Shown one piece after another: positions 7,042-17,497 of a stretch of DNA of 64,000 nucleotides. This DNA comes from an uncultured Chloroflexia bacterium (GTDB lineage: Bacteria; Chloroflexota; Limnocylindria; Limnocylindrales; CSP1-4), in the NCBI GenBank assembly GCA_963752475.1, contig CAVVYR010000006.1, positions 1 through 64,000 on the forward strand, read 5' to 3'. A model generated the notes under the pieces. The model was not told the origin of the DNA. It worked only from the letters and a program-made list of their open reading frames with translations, and made no database searches. Each line of letters starts with the position of its first letter. Positions within the stretch are counted from its first letter, which is position 1. A program made the position numbers and the translations under genes.

Positions 7042-8382
7042 CTAGAACTCGGTCGGCTGGATCGGCTCAGTTTCCGGCTCCGCGAGCTTGGGCTGAGGCT
7101 CGGAGGCCTCACGCTCCTCGACGCCGTGGAACCAGTGCCAGTAGAGCCACGTGCCCAGGCTGTAGAGGACGATGACCGTGACGAAGCTGACGGCGTAGCC
7201 ACCGTCGAAGCCGAGGTTGGCCTGCAGCAGGCTGTACCACGGGCCGGCGATGGCCCAGGCGAGCGACCAGAGCAGGCTGGCCGCGGCCGCGAACGGCGCG
7301 CGCTCCGCCGCCGGCAGGCGCTCCATGGCGAAGGCGTTGAAGAGTGGGTGACCCGAGTTCATGAGCGCGTTCCGCACGGTCATGGCGATGATCACCGTCC
7401 ACAGGACCGGGCTGAACCCGAGCACGAACAGGAAGGGGATGCTCACGCCCTGCACGAGGACCACGGTACCGACCTTGCCGAAGCGCGAGGCCAGGGCCGG
7501 CTGGGCCATCATCGCGAGCACGGTGCCTACGCCGGTGATGGCGAAGATGAAGTTGAGCGCGGTCAGGTCGAGGCCGAACTTGCCCTCGATGAAGACGTTG
7601 AGGTACGGGATGATCTGCCCCGCGCCCAGGGCGATGATGAAGTTCGGGATCAACAGCCGCGCGAACGTCCCGGGGTCCGACAGGTGTGGCAGGCGCGAAC
7701 GAAGGCCCCGACGCTCGCCCGAGACCCCGGCCTCGGCAACCGGCCTCGAGCGGGGTCGATCGTCGCGCAGGGCCACGACCGCCACACCGGCCAGCACCGC
7801 GGCCACGGTCATGACCGCCAGCAGCGTGCGGTACACCGCGGTGTCGTTGGAGTCGACCCCGAGGGTGGCGCTGATGGCCACGGCCACGAGCCCGCCGAGG
7901 ATGGCCGCACCGATGTTGGTGGCCGGCATGATCGCGGCCTGCAGCGAGAAGAGCTCGTTGCGATGTTCCGGGCGACTGTGCTCCATGAGCAGCGGCGACT
8001 GCAGCACGAAGAACGTCTGACTGGCGGCGCCCACCGCGGCAGAGCCGGCGATGATGGCCAGCGGGCCGGTGAAGAAGATGAGGCAGGCCGTCGCGAATGC
8101 CGCGACCACGGACCCTGTGATCATCACCACGCGTCGCCCGAGCCTGTTCGAGGCCATGCTCAGCGGGAGTGCTACCACGACGCCGGCGAGGGACCACGCC
8201 GCGCCCGTCAGGCCGATGAACGCGGGTTCGTACCCGAGGGCAGTGAGGTAGAGGTTGAAGTCGACCCACCAGAGGCTGAACAGCGTCCCGAAGGCCAGCG
8301 AGGCCAGCAGGAAGATCCGCGCATCCCGCTCGAAGCCGGTGAACTTGCGGGCATAGCGCACCAGGGCGCGCACGGGCCTCAA
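7042..8382 (-). CDS. MFS transporter
   Basis: About 12 TM segments; SNRLGRR and ASRFGKV loop motifs. Confidence 0.9.
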   Translation of the reverse strand: MRPVRALVRYARKFTGFERDARIFLLASLAFGTLFSLWWVDFNLYLTALGYEPAFIGLTGAAWSLAGVVVALPLSMASNRLGRRVVMITGSVVAAFATACLIFFTGPLAIIAGSAAVGAASQTFFVLQSPLLMEHSRPEHRNELFSLQAAIMPATNIGAAILGGLVAVAISATLGVDSNDTAVYRTLLAVMTVAAVLAGVAVVALRDDRPRSRPVAEAGVSGERRGLRSRLPHLSDPGTFARLLIPNFIIALGAGQIIPYLNVFIEGKFGLDLTALNFIFAITGVGTVLAMMAQPALASRFGKVGTVVLVQGVSIPFLFVLGFSPVLWTVIIAMTVRNALMNSGHPLFNAFAMERLPAAERAPFAAAASLLWSLAWAIAGPWYSLLQANLGFDGGYAVSFVTVIVLYSLGTWLYWHWFHGVEEREASEPQPKLAEPETEPIQPTEF

Positions 8383-8517: not shown

Positions 8518-9342
8518 TCAGAAGAGCTTCGTCTCGATCCCGAAGACCTCGACCATCTCAGCGCTCTCCTCGTTCGTGAGGCCCTCGCCGCCGCCACCGA
8601 CCTGCAGATCCATGTACTCGTAGCGGCCGCCGGCCTCGGCGTACTCGATACGGTCGACTGCGCGCGTGACGGAGATGTCGCTGCGAGCCATGACGCCGTG
8701 CTTGGACCAGACCGTGATGCGGTGCTGCCGGAGCGACTCGACCGTGGCCGCCATCAACTCCTCGGAGCTGGGCAGCATGAAGGGCAGGATGCCGATCCCG
8801 GCCGGCAGCTGGACGACGGTCTCCGGTTGCCAGCGGATGAGTCGGCGGCTGAAGAGGTCCTCATCCTGGTACTCGGGTCGGTGGGACAGGTAGACCAGAT
8901 GCGGCGGCTGGGCGTGGACCACGGCGTGGAAGTTGGTGCCCGTTCGGGCGACGGTGTCGTCATGGACCGCGAGGTGTGAGTTCCACTCCGACGTGAGCAC
9001 CTCGAACTGGCGCGCGTTGGCGGTGTAGAGCGTGCCGTGGGTGCCGTCGTCGTGGACGACGACCGCGCCGATGGACTCGAGCGGCAGGCGGTCGAGGTCG
9101 CGCAGCCGGCGACCCGAGCCGGTGACGAGGACGGTGTGTCCGGGCAGGTTCGGTGCCGGGACCGGGAGCTCGATCTCCTCGGCCATGGGGAACTGTCTTC
9201 GGACCTCCATGGGCCAGCCGATGCAGACGGAGATGTTGCCGGCACCGCCTTCGGTCGCATCGATGGCCGCCAGCCGGCGTCCGCCGATGCCGATCGACTC
9301 GATGATCTCTTCAAGGCTGGGCAGGGGATCGGTGAGGGGCAT
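8518..9342 (-). CDS. rhaD: Class II aldolase, rhamnulose-1-phosphate aldolase-like
   Basis: EGGAGNIS, VTGSG, TSEWNSH, VHAQP and WSKHG Zn-aldolase motifs. Confidence 0.75.
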   Translation of the reverse strand: MPLTDPLPSLEEIIESIGIGGRRLAAIDATEGGAGNISVCIGWPMEVRRQFPMAEEIELPVPAPNLPGHTVLVTGSGRRLRDLDRLPLESIGAVVVHDDGTHGTLYTANARQFEVLTSEWNSHLAVHDDTVARTGTNFHAVVHAQPPHLVYLSHRPEYQDEDLFSRRLIRWQPETVVQLPAGIGILPFMLPSSEELMAATVESLRQHRITVWSKHGVMARSDISVTRAVDRIEYAEAGGRYEYMDLQVGGGGEGLTNEESAEMVEVFGIETKLF

Positions 9343-9375: not shown

Positions 9376-9389
9376 TGGTAGCGATGCCA
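9376..9389. promoter_or_regulatory. Candidate LacI operator (copy 3)
   Basis: TGGTAGCGATGCCA, about 35 bp upstream of the aldolase. It matches TGGTAnCGnTACCA with one mismatch. Confidence 0.6.
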
Positions 9390-11411: not shown

Positions 11412-11518
11412 CCCTCGATGGTAGGCGCCATCGCGGGTGTCTTGTCGCGAAGCCCGTGCCCGCCGCCAGCTGGGTATCGGTCAGGCCCTCGGTCGACCGA
11501 GCCAGCTACCATCGACCG

Positions 11519-12772
11519 GTGACGTCGATTCGACCTGCGTTGGCGATGCTCCTCGTGGCCGCCCTGATCCTTACGAGCGCTCTCGGCCCGTCGGTCGCGC
11601 CGGTCGCCGCCCAATCATCGCCGGCCGAGGTGTGTCTGCCGAGCCTGTCCGGTCCCACGCTCGAGCAACTCGTCGGCCAGAAGCTGATGATCACGATGGC
11701 CGGCCGCAAGCCCAGCCAAGCCCTGCTCCGGCGGGTCCGCCGAGGGCAGATCGGTGGTGTCGTCCTGCTCGCGCGCAACGTCGGTACGCGGGCCGGGGTC
11801 ACTCGACTGACACGCCAGCTCCAACGCGCAGCAGCCGAGGGAGGTCAGCCGCCGCTGCTCATCTCGATCGACCAGGAGGGCGGCACCGTGAAGCGTGTGT
11901 CGTGGGCGCCGCCGACAGTGACCGTGCCGGAGATGGGCCGGTTTCGGTCGACGCGGCTCGCCCGGACCCAGGGCGCGCGCACAGGAGAGGCCCTCCGCCG
12001 CCTCGGTATCAACATGGACCTTGCTCCGGTGGCCGACATCCCGCGCTCGGCAGCCTCGTTCATGCTCCGTCAGGGCCGCACGTTCTCGACCGATGCCGCT
12101 CTCACGAGCGAGCTTGCCAACGCCTTCGCTGACGGGCTCATCTCCCGTGGTGTGCTGCCGACGATGAAGCACTTCCCGGGCATCGGGCGCGCGACACGCA
12201 ACACCGACCGCTTCGTCGACACCGTAGCCGCGTCGAAGGCCGCGTTGCGCTCGGACCTACGGCCCTACCGCAAGGCGATCCGTCGCGACATCCCGCTGAT
12301 CATGCTTTCGAACGCCACGTACTCTGCCTACGATCAACGGAATGCGGCTGGCTGGTCGCGCAGGATCGCCACCGGCCTGCTCCGCCACGAACTCGGCTTC
12401 GAGGGCGTCTCCATCACCGACTCGCTGAACGGGACAGCCAACGCGCGCAGCACCACCGTCCGGCGACTTGCGTTCGAAGCGGCGCGAGCTGGCGTCGACA
12501 TGCTCCTCGTCACGGGCTCGGAGCGGGCCTCTGCCTGGCTCTACAGCCGGCTCCTCTCGGATGCCCGCCGTGAGCGGATCCGGCGGTCAGACCTGCGAGC
12601 CTCCTACGATCGGATCATGGCGCTCAAGGAGACGCTGCAGCCTCGTGGCTGGTCGCCCGCGCCCAGTGACTGTGAGCGGACCATCGGCGACTGGCTCCAG
12701 GAGCTCGCCGACCACATCCGCTCCACATACGGGTTCGGCGCGAGGCGCGAGCGAGCTGGAGAGCCACGCTAG
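11519..12772 (+). CDS. Secreted GH3 N-terminal-domain glycosidase (beta-N-acetylhexosaminidase-like)
   Basis: Signal peptide; DQEGG, LAPVAD, KHFPGIG and ITDSL motifs. NTD replaces the NagZ DSH motif. Confidence 0.85.
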   Translation: MTSIRPALAMLLVAALILTSALGPSVAPVAAQSSPAEVCLPSLSGPTLEQLVGQKLMITMAGRKPSQALLRRVRRGQIGGVVLLARNVGTRAGVTRLTRQLQRAAAEGGQPPLLISIDQEGGTVKRVSWAPPTVTVPEMGRFRSTRLARTQGARTGEALRRLGINMDLAPVADIPRSAASFMLRQGRTFSTDAALTSELANAFADGLISRGVLPTMKHFPGIGRATRNTDRFVDTVAASKAALRSDLRPYRKAIRRDIPLIMLSNATYSAYDQRNAAGWSRRIATGLLRHELGFEGVSITDSLNGTANARSTTVRRLAFEAARAGVDMLLVTGSERASAWLYSRLLSDARRERIRRSDLRASYDRIMALKETLQPRGWSPAPSDCERTIGDWLQELADHIRSTYGFGARRERAGEPR

Positions 12773-12833: not shown

Positions 12834-13286
12834 ATGAAGATCGCCGACGCAGAGACCTCATTCCGAAGCTACCTCGAGGCGCGCGACCTACGGGTGGATC
12901 ACGCTGACGCCGTCGACCTCATCCTGGCCATGATCGACTGGTACGAGGCCGAGCGCGCCGAGGACACGGTCGCCATCGAGGACGATGGCGACCAGCTGCT
13001 TTTCCAGTGGGGCACGTTCGACTGGGGTGACGGCCCAGCCCTGGAGGTCGGGATCTCTCGGCAGTTCATCAGTCTCGACTCTGACGGACCCATCCGCCAG
13101 CTGGCCCTCGTCTTCCGGTACCCGGCGTCCGCCGAGACCGAGAAGCTCTACGACGACGCCTGGTGGTGCCGCGGGCCGGTCGATGTCGCGGGGTTCCGCA
13201 AGGACGTCCGGTCGACCGATGTCGCGCGCTTCGCGACCCGTGGAACGCCGACCGCCAGGCAGCTCGCGTTCGGGAACGCCGGCTGA
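12834..13286 (+). CDS. Hypothetical protein
   Basis: 150 aa with a conserved-looking DGDQLLFQWGTFDW..ISRQF segment. Confidence 0.75.
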   Translation: MKIADAETSFRSYLEARDLRVDHADAVDLILAMIDWYEAERAEDTVAIEDDGDQLLFQWGTFDWGDGPALEVGISRQFISLDSDGPIRQLALVFRYPASAETEKLYDDAWWCRGPVDVAGFRKDVRSTDVARFATRGTPTARQLAFGNAG

Positions 13287-13694: not shown

Positions 13695-13708
13695 TGGTAT
13701 CGTTACCA
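13695..13708. promoter_or_regulatory. Candidate LacI operator (copy 1)
   Basis: TGGTATCGTTACCA, a central-CG palindrome just upstream of the epimerase. Confidence 0.75.
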
Positions 13709-13746
13709 CCATTAGCACTCTGACCGCGAGCGAGGTACCCATCCCG

Positions 13747-14808
13747 ATGCCCCAGGACTTCAACGACACCATCCCCGGAACCGACGTCGCGCGGGGCATG
13801 AACAAGGATGACCTCATCGTCATCGCTGGCGCCGGTGGCTTCATCGCCGGCTCGCTGACCCGCTACTTCGCCGAGCAGGGCTACACCAACATCCGCGCCA
13901 TCGACCGCAAGCCGCTGCCCGACTGGTACCTCCGCGTCCCCGGCGTCGAGTCCATCTCGGCCGACCTCAGCGTCGAGGCCAACGCCATCGAGGCCGTCAA
14001 GGGCGCGGTGGAGGTGTACAACCTCGCCGCCGACATGGGCGGCATGGGCTTCATCGAGAACTTCCGCGTCGAGTGCCTGCGCTCGATCCTCGTGAACACG
14101 CACCTCACCGAGGCCAGCTACCGCGCCGGCGTCGGCCGCTACTTCTTCAGCTCCAGCGCCTGCGCCTACAACACCGACCTGCAGAAGACCAACGAGGTCG
14201 TCGCGCTCAAGGAGTCCGACGCCTACCCCGCGATGGCCGAGCGCGGCTACGGCTGGGAGAAGCTCGTCAGCGAGATGTTCTGCGAGGAGTACTGGGCCGA
14301 GCGTCAGCTCGAGACCCACATCGCCCGCTTCCACAACATCTACGGTCCCAACGGCACCTGGTTCGGCGGCCGCGAGAAGGCGCCGGCGGCGATGTGCCGC
14401 AAGGTCCTCGAGGCCCAGGACAGCGGCGACATGAAGATCGAGATCTGGGGCGACGGCGAGCAGACCCGCTCGTTCTGCTACATCGACGACTGCCTCCACG
14501 GCATCGACCTGATCATGCACACCGACGAGCTCATCGCCACGCCCATCAACCTGGGCTCCAGCGAGATGGTCTCGATCAACCAGCTCGTCGACATCGTCGA
14601 GGACATCGCCGGCGTCAAGCTCGAGCGCGAGTACGACCTCGATGCGCCCAAGGGCGTGGCCGGCCGCAACAGCGACAACACCTTCATCCAGGAGGTCCTC
14701 GGTTGGGAGCCCGACAAGCCGCTCCGTGACGGCATGGCCGAGACCTACGAGTGGATCAGCGAGCAGTTCGCCGCCCGCAAGGCCGGCAAGCGCGTCGTCG
14801 AAGGCTAG
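13747..14808 (+). CDS. GDP-mannose 3,5-epimerase-like NAD-dependent epimerase
   Basis: GAGGFIA, NLAADMGGMGFI, SSAC (catalytic Cys), YGWEK and GGREKAPAA (catalytic Lys), as in GME. Confidence 0.85.
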   Translation: MPQDFNDTIPGTDVARGMNKDDLIVIAGAGGFIAGSLTRYFAEQGYTNIRAIDRKPLPDWYLRVPGVESISADLSVEANAIEAVKGAVEVYNLAADMGGMGFIENFRVECLRSILVNTHLTEASYRAGVGRYFFSSSACAYNTDLQKTNEVVALKESDAYPAMAERGYGWEKLVSEMFCEEYWAERQLETHIARFHNIYGPNGTWFGGREKAPAAMCRKVLEAQDSGDMKIEIWGDGEQTRSFCYIDDCLHGIDLIMHTDELIATPINLGSSEMVSINQLVDIVEDIAGVKLEREYDLDAPKGVAGRNSDNTFIQEVLGWEPDKPLRDGMAETYEWISEQFAARKAGKRVVEG

Positions 14809-14815
14809 GACGGCG

Positions 14816-15628
14816 ATGACGGTGCCTACCAAGGCTCCGCCGACGTCCGCCAGTCTCCAGGGGGCGATCGGCAACTTCCCGTACCGACTTCAGATGGCGG
14901 GCGGCTGGATCGACCAGCCGTTCGTCTCGGAGGCCGACCCCGAGCCGCCGGGCTCGATGGTCGTGGTCTCGATGCTGCCGACCGTGCGCTACATGGAGCG
15001 CAGCGGCATGGCCACCGGCACCCGCCGAGTGGCGCAGCGACTGTGGGGTGACGCGCTCCCGGCCGATCGTGCGCCCGAGGAGCTCGTGCGCGAGCTCTAC
15101 GAGGCTGAGAACGAAGGTCTGGCCGACCCCTCGGGCTCGCAGGACATGTGCGGCCTCATCTATCCCGGCATCAGCCGGCTCGACTACGACGCCTCGGTCG
15201 AGGGCGGCTGGTTCCCCAGCCACATCGAGACCACTTGCGACCCGCAGGTCGTGGCTTGGCTCGAGCGGGTCATCCACCTGGTCCCGCTCGGCCCGCGACC
15301 CGACGGCTACAACCCGCTGCTCACCAAGAACATGGACCCCGCCTGGGTCAAGCGGCTGGGCGACTCGGGGGCGGCTTGCTACGACGCCATCGTGGCCATG
15401 GACCTCGCCGCGCTGGGCGAGTCGCTCAACGAGACCTCCCGTGCGTGGAGGACGATCCTGCCCCACATCTACGAGCACGAGACCATCAAGGACGACCTCT
15501 GGGGTCTGCTCGAGGGCTACATGGCGGAGCACGCCGGCGCCATGCAATCCGGCTGCGGCGGCGGCTACATCATCATCGTCTCGGACGAGCCGCCAGCCGG
15601 TTCCGCCCACATCACGGTGCGCACATGA
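14816..15628 (+). CDS. GHMP-kinase-like sugar kinase
   Basis: PYRLQMAGGWID, RSGMATG, SGSQD and SGCGGGY motifs. Confidence 0.7.
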   Translation: MTVPTKAPPTSASLQGAIGNFPYRLQMAGGWIDQPFVSEADPEPPGSMVVVSMLPTVRYMERSGMATGTRRVAQRLWGDALPADRAPEELVRELYEAENEGLADPSGSQDMCGLIYPGISRLDYDASVEGGWFPSHIETTCDPQVVAWLERVIHLVPLGPRPDGYNPLLTKNMDPAWVKRLGDSGAACYDAIVAMDLAALGESLNETSRAWRTILPHIYEHETIKDDLWGLLEGYMAEHAGAMQSGCGGGYIIIVSDEPPAGSAHITVRT

Positions 15629-16440
15629 CGGCTGGGCGCACGGTCGTCGAATCCAGCCTCGACGACCTTCGCTCCGACGACGTCCGCTTCCTCGAGGAGG
15701 CGGCCGGCGCCGGCGACCTGCACGTCCGCATCCCATCCGACGCTTTGGTGCAGGAGCTGACGGGTTCAGCCCCCAAGTTTCCCGACGCCGAACGCCTTTT
15801 CCTCGCCGAGTCGCTTCGCTGGGTGAGCTCGGCCGAGGTCGTGGACGCGCCGATCGGCTCGGTCATCGAAGCCGTGGCTGCCGAGGCGGGAACGCTCGCG
15901 GTGCGCGCCGAGGACGAGGATCCAGCACTCCGTTCGGCCGCCCGAGCGGCGGACCTCCAGGTCCGGGCCATCAGTCCCGAAGACCGCGCCGGCTTCCCGC
16001 CCATCGAGCCAGGGCCGCTGCCCGAAGGGGCCGAGACGGTCCTGGTCACCGGCTGCTTCGACTGGGTCCACTCGGGGCACATCCGCTTCTTCATGGATGC
16101 GGCCGAGTACGGTCCGCTCTACGTGGTCATCGGCAGCGATCGCAACGTCCGCCTGCTGAAGGGGGAGGGGCATCCGCTGCAGGGTGAGGATGAGCGACGC
16201 TACATGGTCGGCTCGATGAAGCCGGTCCACAGCTGCCTCGTCTCGACCGGTTCCGGCTGGATGGATGCCGAGCCGGAGGTGAAGCGCCTGAAGCCCACGT
16301 TCTACGTGGTCAACGAAGATGGCGACAAGCCGGAGAAGCGCGAGTTCTGCGCCGCGCACGGTCTGCGCTACACGGTCCTGGAGCGGGTTCCGCACGAAGG
16401 GCTGCCGGCCCGCTCGAGCACCGACCTGCGGGGGTTCTAG
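15625..16440 (+). CDS. Cytidylyltransferase-superfamily nucleotidyltransferase (duplicated domain)
   Basis: C-terminal domain has GCFDWVHSGH..SDR..RSST. The N-terminal domain is a degenerate copy. ATGA overlap with the kinase. Confidence 0.85.
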   Translation: MTAGRTVVESSLDDLRSDDVRFLEEAAGAGDLHVRIPSDALVQELTGSAPKFPDAERLFLAESLRWVSSAEVVDAPIGSVIEAVAAEAGTLAVRAEDEDPALRSAARAADLQVRAISPEDRAGFPPIEPGPLPEGAETVLVTGCFDWVHSGHIRFFMDAAEYGPLYVVIGSDRNVRLLKGEGHPLQGEDERRYMVGSMKPVHSCLVSTGSGWMDAEPEVKRLKPTFYVVNEDGDKPEKREFCAAHGLRYTVLERVPHEGLPARSSTDLRGF

Positions 16441-16469
16441 CCCGCGCATCCGGCCCGCGCGCCATTGGG

Positions 16470-16483
16470 TGGTTACGTTACCA
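16470..16483. promoter_or_regulatory. Candidate LacI operator (copy 2, autoregulatory)
   Basis: TGGTTACGTTACCA, immediately before the GGAGG SD of the LacI gene. Confidence 0.7.
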
Positions 16484-16492
16484 TCGGAGGTC

Positions 16493-17497
16493 ATGGCCAC
16501 CGTCCTCGATGTCGCCAAGCGCGCAGGTGTATCGCCGATGACCGTGTCCCGGGTCGTGAACGGCTCCGGGCCGGTCAGCCCCAAGCTGCGCGCGCGCGTC
16601 GAGAAGGCGCTGAAGGAGACGGGCTACGTGCCCAACTCGGTGGCGCGCAACCTGCGCACCAAGCGCACCGACACCATCGGCCTGGTCATGCCCGACATCA
16701 CCAACCCCTTCTTCACCCACGTCGTGCGCGGGATGGAAGTGACGGCGCGTGAGGCTGGGCTGCTGCTGCTGCTGACCAATACCGATCAGCGACAGGACGA
16801 GGAGACGCGCGTGGTCGCGATGCTGCTGCAACGCCAGGTCGACGGCATGCTGGCCATCCCTGCCGGGACCTGCGCCGACACCGCGCGACTGTGCAAGGAG
16901 GCCGAGGTGCCGCTGGTCATCGTCGACCGGCGACCGGAGACACCCGGAAGCATCGACGTCGTGCGTGCCGATGCCGAGGGTGGGGCGTACGAGCTCGGGA
17001 AGCTGCTCGCGGGCCTGGGGCATCAGCATGTGGCCGTCATCACCGGCCCCGAGTACGTGCCCACGGCGGTCGACCGCGCGGCCGGCTTCTCGAAGGCGAT
17101 GGAGGAGGAAGGGCTGCCGGCGCCGACCATCGTGCACGGCGACTTCTCGCTCGAAGGCGGCTATGACATGACCGTGGAGTTGATGAAGCGGGAGCCGCGA
17201 CCGACGGCCATCTTCGCGGCCAACAACTTCCTCGCCATCGGCACGCAGCATGCGATCGAGGAGATGGGCCTGCGGGTGCCGGAGGACGTGGCTCTCGTGG
17301 GCCTCGATGACCTGCCGGCCGAGATGGTGACCTTCCCGTTCCTGACGGTGGCGGCGCAGCCGGCCGAGGAGATGGGGCGCCGCGCGGTCGAACTGCTGCT
17401 CAAGCGCATCAAGGACCCCGAGGCAGCAGCCGAGGAGATCCTGCTCCCGACCGAGCTGACGGTCCGCCGTTCCAGCGGAGACCCACTCCCGGTCTAG
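16493..17497 (+). CDS. LacI-family transcriptional regulator
   Basis: TVLDVAKRAGVSPMTVSRVVN HTH, YVPNSVARNL hinge and a sugar-binding domain. Confidence 0.95.
   Translation: MATVLDVAKRAGVSPMTVSRVVNGSGPVSPKLRARVEKALKETGYVPNSVARNLRTKRTDTIGLVMPDITNPFFTHVVRGMEVTAREAGLLLLLTNTDQRQDEETRVVAMLLQRQVDGMLAIPAGTCADTARLCKEAEVPLVIVDRRPETPGSIDVVRADAEGGAYELGKLLAGLGHQHVAVITGPEYVPTAVDRAAGFSKAMEEEGLPAPTIVHGDFSLEGGYDMTVELMKREPRPTAIFAANNFLAIGTQHAIEEMGLRVPEDVALVGLDDLPAEMVTFPFLTVAAQPAEEMGRRAVELLLKRIKDPEAAAEEILLPTELTVRRSSGDPLPV

Follow-up and report, generated by a model that had tools for sequence, protein, structure and literature searches.

What would a homologue of GME (GDP-mannose 3,5-epimerase) do in an operon that also encodes a putative sugar kinase, a putative nucleotidyltransferase and a LacI-family repressor? 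The question is raised by a locus of an uncultured Chloroflexia bacterium (assembly GCA_963752475.1), located in the first 64,000 nucleotides (nt) of the forward strand of contig CAVVYR010000006.1; this whole stretch is referred to as the window (G+C content 65-72%). Four genes lie head to tail and tightly packed on the + strand within positions 13695-17497, and we consider it slightly better than an even bet that they constitute a LacI-repressed nucleotide-sugar route feeding an L-galacto-configured hexose, most likely L-galactose (L-Gal), into mannose metabolism. The features of the locus are as follows (aa, amino acids; bp, base pairs):

13695-13708, operator O1, TGGTATCGTTACCA, a 14-bp LacI-type palindrome with a central CG, 103 nt upstream of the ATG (13798) of the epimerase gene
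13798-14808, + strand, epimerase (GME homologue), 336 aa, with an alternative in-frame ATG at 13747; PF01370, E 1.9e-31
14816-15628, + strand, GHMP-fold, fucokinase-like putative anomeric sugar kinase, 270 aa, starting 8 nt past the epimerase stop
15625-16440, + strand, tandem cytidylyltransferase-fold (CT) protein, putative sugar-1-phosphate nucleotidyltransferase, 271 aa, with an ATGA overlap with the kinase-like gene
16470-16483, operator O2, TGGTTACGTTACCA, 10 nt before the lacI ATG
16493-17497, + strand, LacI-family repressor; PF00356, E 3e-18, plus Peripla_BP_1/3/4

A first-pass annotation of this DNA had described a tight cluster of epimerase, kinase, nucleotidyltransferase and LacI, and all four genes were indeed found on the + strand. 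No coding sequence begins at 13695, the start that it gave for the cluster. This position does not share the reading frame of the epimerase and coincides with the first base of the O1 palindrome.

The identity of the epimerase is indicated by its similarity to the solved plant GMEs, which it matches over residues 7-329 (PDB 8sg0, E 3e-79; 2c59, E 6e-77; about 50% identity to plant GME). It belongs to the extended short-chain dehydrogenase/reductase (SDR) fold, and its N-terminal GAGGFIA aligns to the glycine motif of GME. According to a review (PMC8787198), cited here, like the other publications below, from a part of its text, the residues that define GDP-mannose 3,5-epimerases (GM35E) are the triad S143/Y174/K178, the acid C145, the base K217, and R306, R243 and N203; this list sets GM35E apart from GalE and from GDP-fucose synthase, the latter having His in place of K217 and Lys in place of R306. 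All eight fingerprint residues of the Arabidopsis enzyme (AtGME S143, C145, Y174, K178, N203, K217, R243 and R306), counted along the alignment with 2c59 (chain numbering +2), are kept in the window protein. S120 together with the Y and K of YGWEK align to the catalytic triad, Cys145, Lys217 and Arg306 are matched by SSAC, GGREKAP and GVAGRNSDN, and R243, which contacts the diphosphate, and N203 are matched by GDGEQTRSF and FHNIYGP, respectively. The GME Cys (SSAC), YxxxK and Lys (REKAP) that had been picked out by the first-pass annotation fall, in the alignment with Arabidopsis GME, on C145, Y174/K178 and K217, and that claim stands. The NCBIfam models of GDP-fucose synthase, GalE and heptose epimerase score this protein far under their cut-offs (heptose_epim, 45 bits versus a cut-off of 274.6). 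A GME-type epimerase would be expected to interconvert GDP-L-Gal and GDP-mannose, and the equilibrium of GM35E has been reported to be unfavourable towards L-Gal (PMC8787198, in the part cited), so that the direction from GDP-L-Gal to GDP-mannose would be downhill. For the bacterial GME from Methylacidiphilum fumariolicum, the only one described as characterised in the cited part of PMC6678494, a role in lipopolysaccharide (LPS) synthesis was assigned from its neighbouring genes, which differ from those found here.

The kinase-like protein is much further from characterised enzymes. Searches with the single sequence gave no match in Pfam (E <= 0.01), NCBIfam or the PDB; its relatives comprise 7846 of 8000 scored database candidates, of which the best 120 (68-100% identity) carry the sole name "hypothetical protein". 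In a separate scan of 50%-identity cluster representatives, 622 relatives were obtained at E <= 0.001. The AlphaFold2 (AF2) model of the protein (predicted local distance difference test score, pLDDT, 81.8) has a two-domain GHMP fold, and a Foldseek search with this model returned 74 PDB matches at E <= 0.001, with every listed match belonging to the GHMP family; the top ones were WcbL (a heptokinase), 3k85, a sugar kinase from Campylobacter and FKP in its fucokinase part, with template modelling (TM) scores of about 0.5 and 11-13% identity. A profile built from 29 members of the family (A2) found as its best match the L-fucokinase domain of Bacteroides fragilis FKP (9iip, E 1e-14), followed by heptokinases (1e-8 to 1e-5; 3k85, E 1e-8) and then by mevalonate kinases.

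The functional residues of FKP have been described as D762, the general base, R592, which stabilises the leaving group, and the fucose contacts W599, D601, T602, G759 and Q761 (PMC11982464, in the part cited). Residues R24, W31, D33, G107, Q109 and D110 of the kinase-like protein correspond to R592, W599, D601, G759, Q761 and D762 of FKP, so that six of the seven positions are identical and invariant or nearly so across the kinase-like family; at the seventh, T602, the window protein has Gln34. This sugar pocket points to a substrate with the L-fuco/galacto configuration at C2-C4. FKP itself phosphorylates L-galactose, for which its Km is 3345 uM compared with 34 uM for L-fucose, and goes on to form GDP-L-Gal from it (PMC11982464, in the same part). 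Motif III reads SGCGGGY in the window protein and SGAGGGGY in the wider family, both aligning to GAGGGGY of FKP. Altogether, the kinase-like protein is remotely homologous to L-fucokinase, keeps a conserved pocket for L-fuco/galacto sugars and has a presumed kinase activity. In contrast to the arrangement in FKP, it is encoded by a separate gene, not fused to an NTP_transferase/beta-helix GDP-fucose pyrophosphorylase, and its partner is the CT-fold protein.

The label "GHMP kinase", used by the first-pass annotation, would hold at the level of fold and family profile only, since the Pfam models GHMP_kinases_N/C do not match the window protein; PF08544 matches 4 of the 28 family members scanned. 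The "non-canonical ATP loop" RSGMATG noted there is present at residues 62-68 and turns out to be a Gly/Ser/Thr loop that the family itself conserves. RSGMATGTR, for which the consensus in the family is RSGMATSTR, is invariant or nearly so; it lies outside the stretches aligned to FKP and may serve as the ATP loop. These same features could be taken to mean that the GHMP-fold protein is not a kinase at all and either assists the transferase in a regulatory or non-catalytic role or catalyses some other reaction. The missing Pfam matches, the deviating phosphate loop left unaligned in the FKP match, a length about 70 residues below that of solved sugar kinases and the TM-scores of about 0.5 would suit such a role; however, motif III, the Gly/Ser/Thr-rich loop and the residues equivalent to the general base and the Arg vary little or not at all within the family, and we regard a non-kinase function as quite improbable.

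In the transferase, PF01467 matches residues 141-232 only (E 7.8e-11), and it is this C-terminal half that carries the HSGH motif. When an alignment of 119 homologues was split at residue 128 and the halves were compared by hhalign, they matched each other with 97.2% probability (E 4.3e-11, 122 columns), the DDLRSDD of the N-terminal half (about residues 1-128) standing opposite the DWVHSGH of the C-terminal half. The N-terminal half is a duplicated domain that has lost HxGH, yet is strongly conserved. The AF2 model (pLDDT 90.9) matches human ethanolamine-phosphate cytidylyltransferase (ECT), a tandem-domain pseudo-dimer, over the full length with a TM-score of 0.75. The degenerate, duplicated N-terminal domain mentioned in the first-pass annotation is thus seen both in the comparison of the halves and in the model. 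Single domains match the heptose-1-phosphate adenylyltransferase HldC and TagD, and the match to HldC indicates that CT-fold enzymes can act on a beta-sugar-1-phosphate.

The latter similarity brings in a heptose pathway, or another nucleotide-sugar pathway for LPS, capsule or S-layer, of the type of HddA or of HldE plus HldD. Besides the resemblance to HldC, the C-terminal half of the transferase scores with rfaE_dom_II (E 1.7e-16), and heptokinases head the structural matches of the kinase model. All such scores are under the cut-offs of the respective families, though (that of rfaE_dom_II included), the profile search ranks fucokinase ahead, the epimerase is GME-type, and neither GmhA/GmhB genes nor LPS or capsule clusters were found in the neighbourhoods scanned, so that a heptose pathway seems highly improbable.

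Conservation of the gene set was examined in a scan of one genome per species, in which at least 560 relatives of the kinase-like gene were obtained; the best 80 loci were analysed, many of them interrelated. By the titles of their records they belong to Chloroflexota, Latescibacterota, Verrucomicrobiota, Planctomycetota, Acidobacteriota, Armatimonadota and Lentisphaerae; a cultured carrier, Fontivita pretiosa B-254, is represented by locus L051. A survey of these gene neighbourhoods for the three-gene set showed the epimerase gene in 76 of the 80 loci, directly upstream of the kinase-like gene and on the same strand in 68, and the transferase gene in 68, directly downstream and on the same strand in 65; both are adjacent to the kinase-like gene in 57. 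In six further loci a single gene (GH29 or FucU) stands between the epimerase gene and the kinase-like gene. The identity of the epimerase across these phyla is 68-95%. The trio is well supported as a conserved functional unit, for which the chemistry proposed below is a prediction.

Fusions were surveyed in 28 family members picked from 150 listed representatives (22 in which further sequence precedes the kinase-like domain, and 6 distant ones of full length). PF01467 lies N-terminal of the kinase-like domain in 17 of the 28, one of which adds an L-rhamnose mutarotase domain and another a PNP_UDP domain. Based on these fusions in other organisms, the kinase-like protein and the transferase are likely to work together. 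The distant fusions are L-rhamnose mutarotase plus CT plus kinase, GT2 plus kinase, GT-DXD plus kinase and PNP_UDP phosphorylase plus CT plus kinase (in P0277, P0289, P0328 and P0309), a variety which suggests that the module of kinase and CT acts on more than one sugar and that some lineages use it for glycan synthesis.

Regulation by LacI, as claimed by the first-pass annotation, agrees with a conserved operator. The repressor has a helix-turn-helix and a periplasmic-binding-protein-like effector domain, and the NCBIfam models RbsR, CytR and PurR match it over the full length, all under their cut-offs. The pattern TGGTANCGNTACCA, with at most one mismatch, occurs at nine sites in the 4.25-Mb genome, and two of them, O1 and O2, flank the operon. 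LacI is encoded nearby in 33 of the 80 loci (one of these only a fragment). When the 400 nt upstream of the epimerase gene and the 250 nt upstream of lacI were searched in the relatives, allowing two mismatches, the motif was present in 32 of 33 loci with LacI versus 1 of 43 without it, often as the perfect palindrome TGGTAACGTTACCA (the match in L055 is poor). The position of O2 is conserved in three of the relatives (L001, L002 and L003). This conservation is a phylogenetic footprint which, at the level of sequence, argues for direct control of the operon by LacI.

A third operator-like site, TGGTAGCGATGCCA (+ strand, 9376-9389), lies about 35 nt upstream of a gene on the - strand (8518-9342) for a class II aldolase resembling rhamnulose-1-phosphate aldolase (NCBIfam 146 bits versus a cut-off of 170), which is followed by a gene for a major facilitator superfamily (MFS) transporter (7042-8382, - strand). 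The same LacI could have a second target here, but the site was not counted in the regulon, as it is not conserved in L001, the one relative that keeps the aldolase.

The context of the operon in other genomes bears on the direction in which the pathway would run. Neighbouring open reading frames (ORFs) were clustered and scanned with Pfam, and the families were then counted by tblastn in the 80 loci; ORFs had been called by a longest-ORF rule, which gives wrong strands in high-G+C DNA (the manC gene of L049, for instance, was found only by tblastn). In this way RbsD/FucU mutarotase was detected in 15 loci, the glycoside hydrolases GH29 (alpha-L-fucosidase), GH95 and GH2 in 9, 2 and 4, ManC-type GDP-mannose pyrophosphorylase in 12, an AraC regulator in 12, and the binding protein and the permease of a CUT2 ATP-binding cassette (ABC) transporter in 9 each; at least one of FucU, GH29, GH95, ManC and the ABC parts occurs in 30 of the 80. 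A locus from Chthonomonadales (L054) shows, on one strand, the order lacI, epimerase, kinase, CT, FucU and ManC, and CT-FucU-ManC recurs in L049 and L070. ManC is directly 3' of the CT gene in five others (L031, L037, L060, L065 and L075), GH29 is within the operon in four (L028, L055, L063 and L068), and in L057 GH95 abuts the operon, with a rhamnogalacturonan lyase nearby. The occurrence of ManC in these operons indicates an exit from, or an entry to, GDP-mannose.

In one Chloroflexota locus (L068:9829-11304) lacI, epimerase, GH29, the kinase-like gene and an uncharacterised ORF of 354 aa are followed by a sulfatase gene (SGSH-like), a hint that the sugar may come from sulfated fucans or galactans. 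In ten loci of Latescibacterota (L026, L029, L032, L035, L036, L039, L040, L043, L044 and L046) the trio belongs to a conserved block that contains neither sugar genes nor a regulator, next to genes for a PcfJ-like protein, a type III pantothenate kinase, malate synthase G and a heparinase II/III-like protein, so that both control and context are unlike those in the other phyla.

Would the substrate be L-fucose, given that the pocket residues are the fucose binders of FKP (PMC11982464, in the part cited)? In that case L-fucose would be converted to GDP-L-fucose, from which the epimerase would form GDP-6-deoxy-D-mannose (GDP-D-rhamnose) or a different 6-deoxy compound. In nature L-fucose is plentiful, and FucU, GH29 and GH95 are annotated as fucose enzymes. 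Against this, GDP-D-rhamnose is not known to have an onward route, ManC would be left without a role in the operons that contain it, and the epimerase keeps the full GM35E fingerprint; L-fucose as the substrate is therefore considered improbable.

A further possibility is that the operon works in the anabolic direction and supplies GDP-L-galactose (or GDP-L-fucose), with ManC and GME providing it de novo, the kinase and the transferase providing it by salvage as FKP does, and the glycosyltransferases being encoded elsewhere. FKP, the closest solved relative of the kinase, serves glycan fucosylation (PMC11982464), and the role assigned to the one characterised bacterial GME from its neighbouring genes is LPS synthesis (PMC6678494), both as stated in the parts cited; in addition, ManC is located in or beside the operon in the 12 loci mentioned, and distant members of the kinase family are fused to GT2 or GT-DXD. 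The context is nevertheless one of sugar-responsive regulators, importers, a mutarotase and exo-glycosidases; the salvage and de novo branches would need no co-induction as one operon; and the equilibrium disfavours GDP-L-Gal (PMC8787198, in the part cited). Moreover, among the 115 ORFs inspected in 11 loci and the 40 in 14 loci we saw neither a glycosyltransferase cluster nor genes for polysaccharide export, and the homologous clusters in the relatives do not lie mainly in LPS or capsule loci. In the window itself, where the first-pass annotation had reported no glycosyltransferase or export genes nearby, none was present among the ORFs scanned from about 800 to 31900. An anabolic supply thus seems unlikely, though well short of far-fetched.

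The catabolic L-galactose route that we favour can be set out as follows. An alpha-L-galactoside would be cleaved by GH29 or GH95 to L-Gal, of which FucU would supply the beta anomer; the fucokinase-like GHMP protein would phosphorylate the anomeric hydroxyl to give beta-L-Gal-1-phosphate, and the tandem CT-fold enzyme would convert this to a nucleoside diphosphate (NDP)-sugar, most likely GDP-L-Gal from GTP. The GME homologue, acting in the thermodynamically favoured direction, would turn GDP-L-Gal into GDP-D-mannose, from which ManC would yield mannose-1-phosphate, phosphomannomutase (PMM) mannose-6-phosphate and mannose-6-phosphate isomerase (PMI) fructose-6-phosphate. LacI would bind both flanking palindromes, and the sugar or an intermediate would presumably release it. 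Outside the operon, the genome has a gene for ManC, one for a PMM-type mutase at a distance of 2 kb from it, and a candidate for a type-I PMI. The first-pass annotation had outlined the conversion of an L-sugar via sugar-1-phosphate and NDP-sugar into the D-mannose nucleotide, and the pocket residues, the fusions, the conservation of the trio, its context and the operator are consistent with that scheme; what the enzymes do, which sugar and nucleotide they use and that the route is catabolic are inferences.

Several observations weigh against this route. The operon of the window has no adjoining transporter, glycosidase or mutarotase, and the single GH29-like match of the genome is weak (32 bits). 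ManC in an operon fits equally well a supply of GDP-mannose for the forward, biosynthetic reaction. L-galactose is far rarer in nature than L-fucose. Known CT-fold enzymes use CTP or ATP and are not known to use GTP, and because of this the choice of GTP and GDP draws only on the homology of the epimerase to GME and on the ManC neighbours. The CT gene was not seen in 12 of the 80 loci; in two of these (L030 and L062) the contig ends right past the kinase-like gene, and in the other ten no replacement nucleotidyltransferase was recognised when one was sought. Two of the distant members picked for the fusion survey carry GT2 or GT-DXD domains. Envelope genes occur in a few flanks: L077 has LpxI/LpxB about 2.7 kb downstream, L027 has LptD, and L068 gives a weak match to PMT_2; Lgt in L057 can be added as a further envelope-related neighbour. 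Finally, the counts describe only the most similar 80 of at least 560 loci, many of which are related to one another.

With regard to the immediate surroundings in the window, the gene next after lacI encodes threonine synthase. Upstream of the operon are a gene for a GH3 NagZ-like hydrolase (11456-12772) and an ORF of 150 aa (12834-13286, + strand), the latter directly 5' of operator O1, with a good codon-position G+C bias and with no match in Pfam or NCBIfam. Both were dropped as parts of the system, as no counterpart was found in any of the 80 related loci. The only FucU homologue of the genome is on a different contig from the operon (C26, L084:8871-9320; L-fucose mutarotase model, 84 bits, under the cut-off), beside genes for a CUT1 ABC transporter, FGGY, PfkB, BtpA and SIS proteins; no operator is nearby and no link to the operon is claimed. 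In RNA libraries, four runs cover small shares of the stretch with contigs that are 90-99% alike and probably derive from relatives. Two contigs from two studies, X1 (14571-14887) and X5 (14738-14888), 99-100% alike, span the epimerase stop and the kinase start; they are compatible with co-transcription in a close relative, DNA carry-over being possible, and as contigs they do not show a transcript.

How does the proposed route compare with known systems? It resembles B. fragilis FKP in having an anomeric GHMP kinase with the same pocket and catalytic residues, followed by formation of a nucleotide sugar, and FKP makes GDP-L-Gal from L-galactose (PMC11982464, in the part cited). It differs in that the nucleotidyltransferase of FKP is an NTP_transferase plus beta-helix, whereas the one here is a tandem cytidylyltransferase of unrelated fold, in that the kinase is a compact protein of 270 aa on its own gene with GME obligatorily linked, and in that the context is sugar utilisation, in contrast to the glycan fucosylation served by FKP. 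With the Leloir pathway (GalK, GalT and GalE) it would share the sequence from GHMP anomeric kinase to nucleotide sugar, SDR epimerase and a common hexose nucleotide, as well as control by a LacI-family repressor (GalR/GalS-like). Unlike in that pathway, the nucleotide would be attached by a pyrophosphorylase-type enzyme (no HIT-family GalT was found in the operon or the neighbours scanned), and the epimerisation would be double, at C3 and C5, from the L to the D series, with a nucleotide that is probably GDP. The Isselbacher variant, with a pyrophosphorylase, is the nearer analogue in logic; the operon, which has no GalT and no pyrophosphorylase of the FKP type, is a member neither of the Leloir route nor of FKP salvage.

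The GMEs of plants and of M. fumariolicum are similar to the epimerase of the operon (E 3e-79 to the plant enzymes, all fingerprint residues kept), whereas their roles are described as biosynthetic, in ascorbate and cell wall formation and, as proposed for the bacterium in the cited part of PMC6678494, in LPS synthesis; here the reverse direction is proposed, within an inducible sugar operon. The ADP-heptose pathway (HldE plus HldD) is likewise made up of a kinase, an SDR epimerase and a transferase of the CT fold whose substrate is a beta-sugar-1-phosphate, with the differences that the kinase of HldE is of the PfkB type and the one here of the GHMP type, that the epimerase here is GME-type and that no heptose genes or LPS context were found. 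The oxidative catabolism of L-galactose in Luteolibacter LG18 would have the same substrate. An oxidative route also reportedly operates in Bacteroides vulgatus. Such bacterial routes begin with L-galactose dehydrogenase and proceed via L-galactonate, with no nucleotide sugar (PMC12632266, in the part cited).

In the literature search, no report of a bacterial L-galactokinase, GDP-L-galactose pyrophosphorylase or L-galactose-1-phosphate guanylyltransferase was found, nor any description of such a route from L-galactose to GDP-mannose; the broader results concerned plant ascorbate, the oxidative bacterial routes, GME and FKP. Whether the operon exemplifies a widespread and so far undescribed Leloir-type catabolism of L-galactose in bacteria, in which the reverse reaction is the main role of many bacterial GMEs, and which includes a compact family of fucokinase-like GHMP kinases without a Pfam model and the first GTP-using, pseudo-dimeric CT-fold sugar-1-phosphate guanylyltransferase, is a broader proposal that we put forward tentatively, its chances being somewhat short of even.

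Should the proposed reading of the operon hold, an L-hexose would have a new way of entering central metabolism, as a nucleotide sugar and not by oxidation, and a function would be available for two large families, with more than 7,800 and more than 4,800 database matches, whose present annotation is "hypothetical protein" or "cytidyltransferase-like". The presumed role of bacterial GDP-mannose 3,5-epimerases would shift from LPS synthesis to sugar utilisation, and the set of kinase, pyrophosphorylase and epimerase would be useful for the enzymatic preparation of GDP-L-galactose and other L-sugar nucleotides. In soils and sediments, Chloroflexota, Planctomycetota, Verrucomicrobiota, Latescibacterota and Acidobacteriota would then be able to use L-galactose from plant pectin or xyloglucan and from algal galactans.

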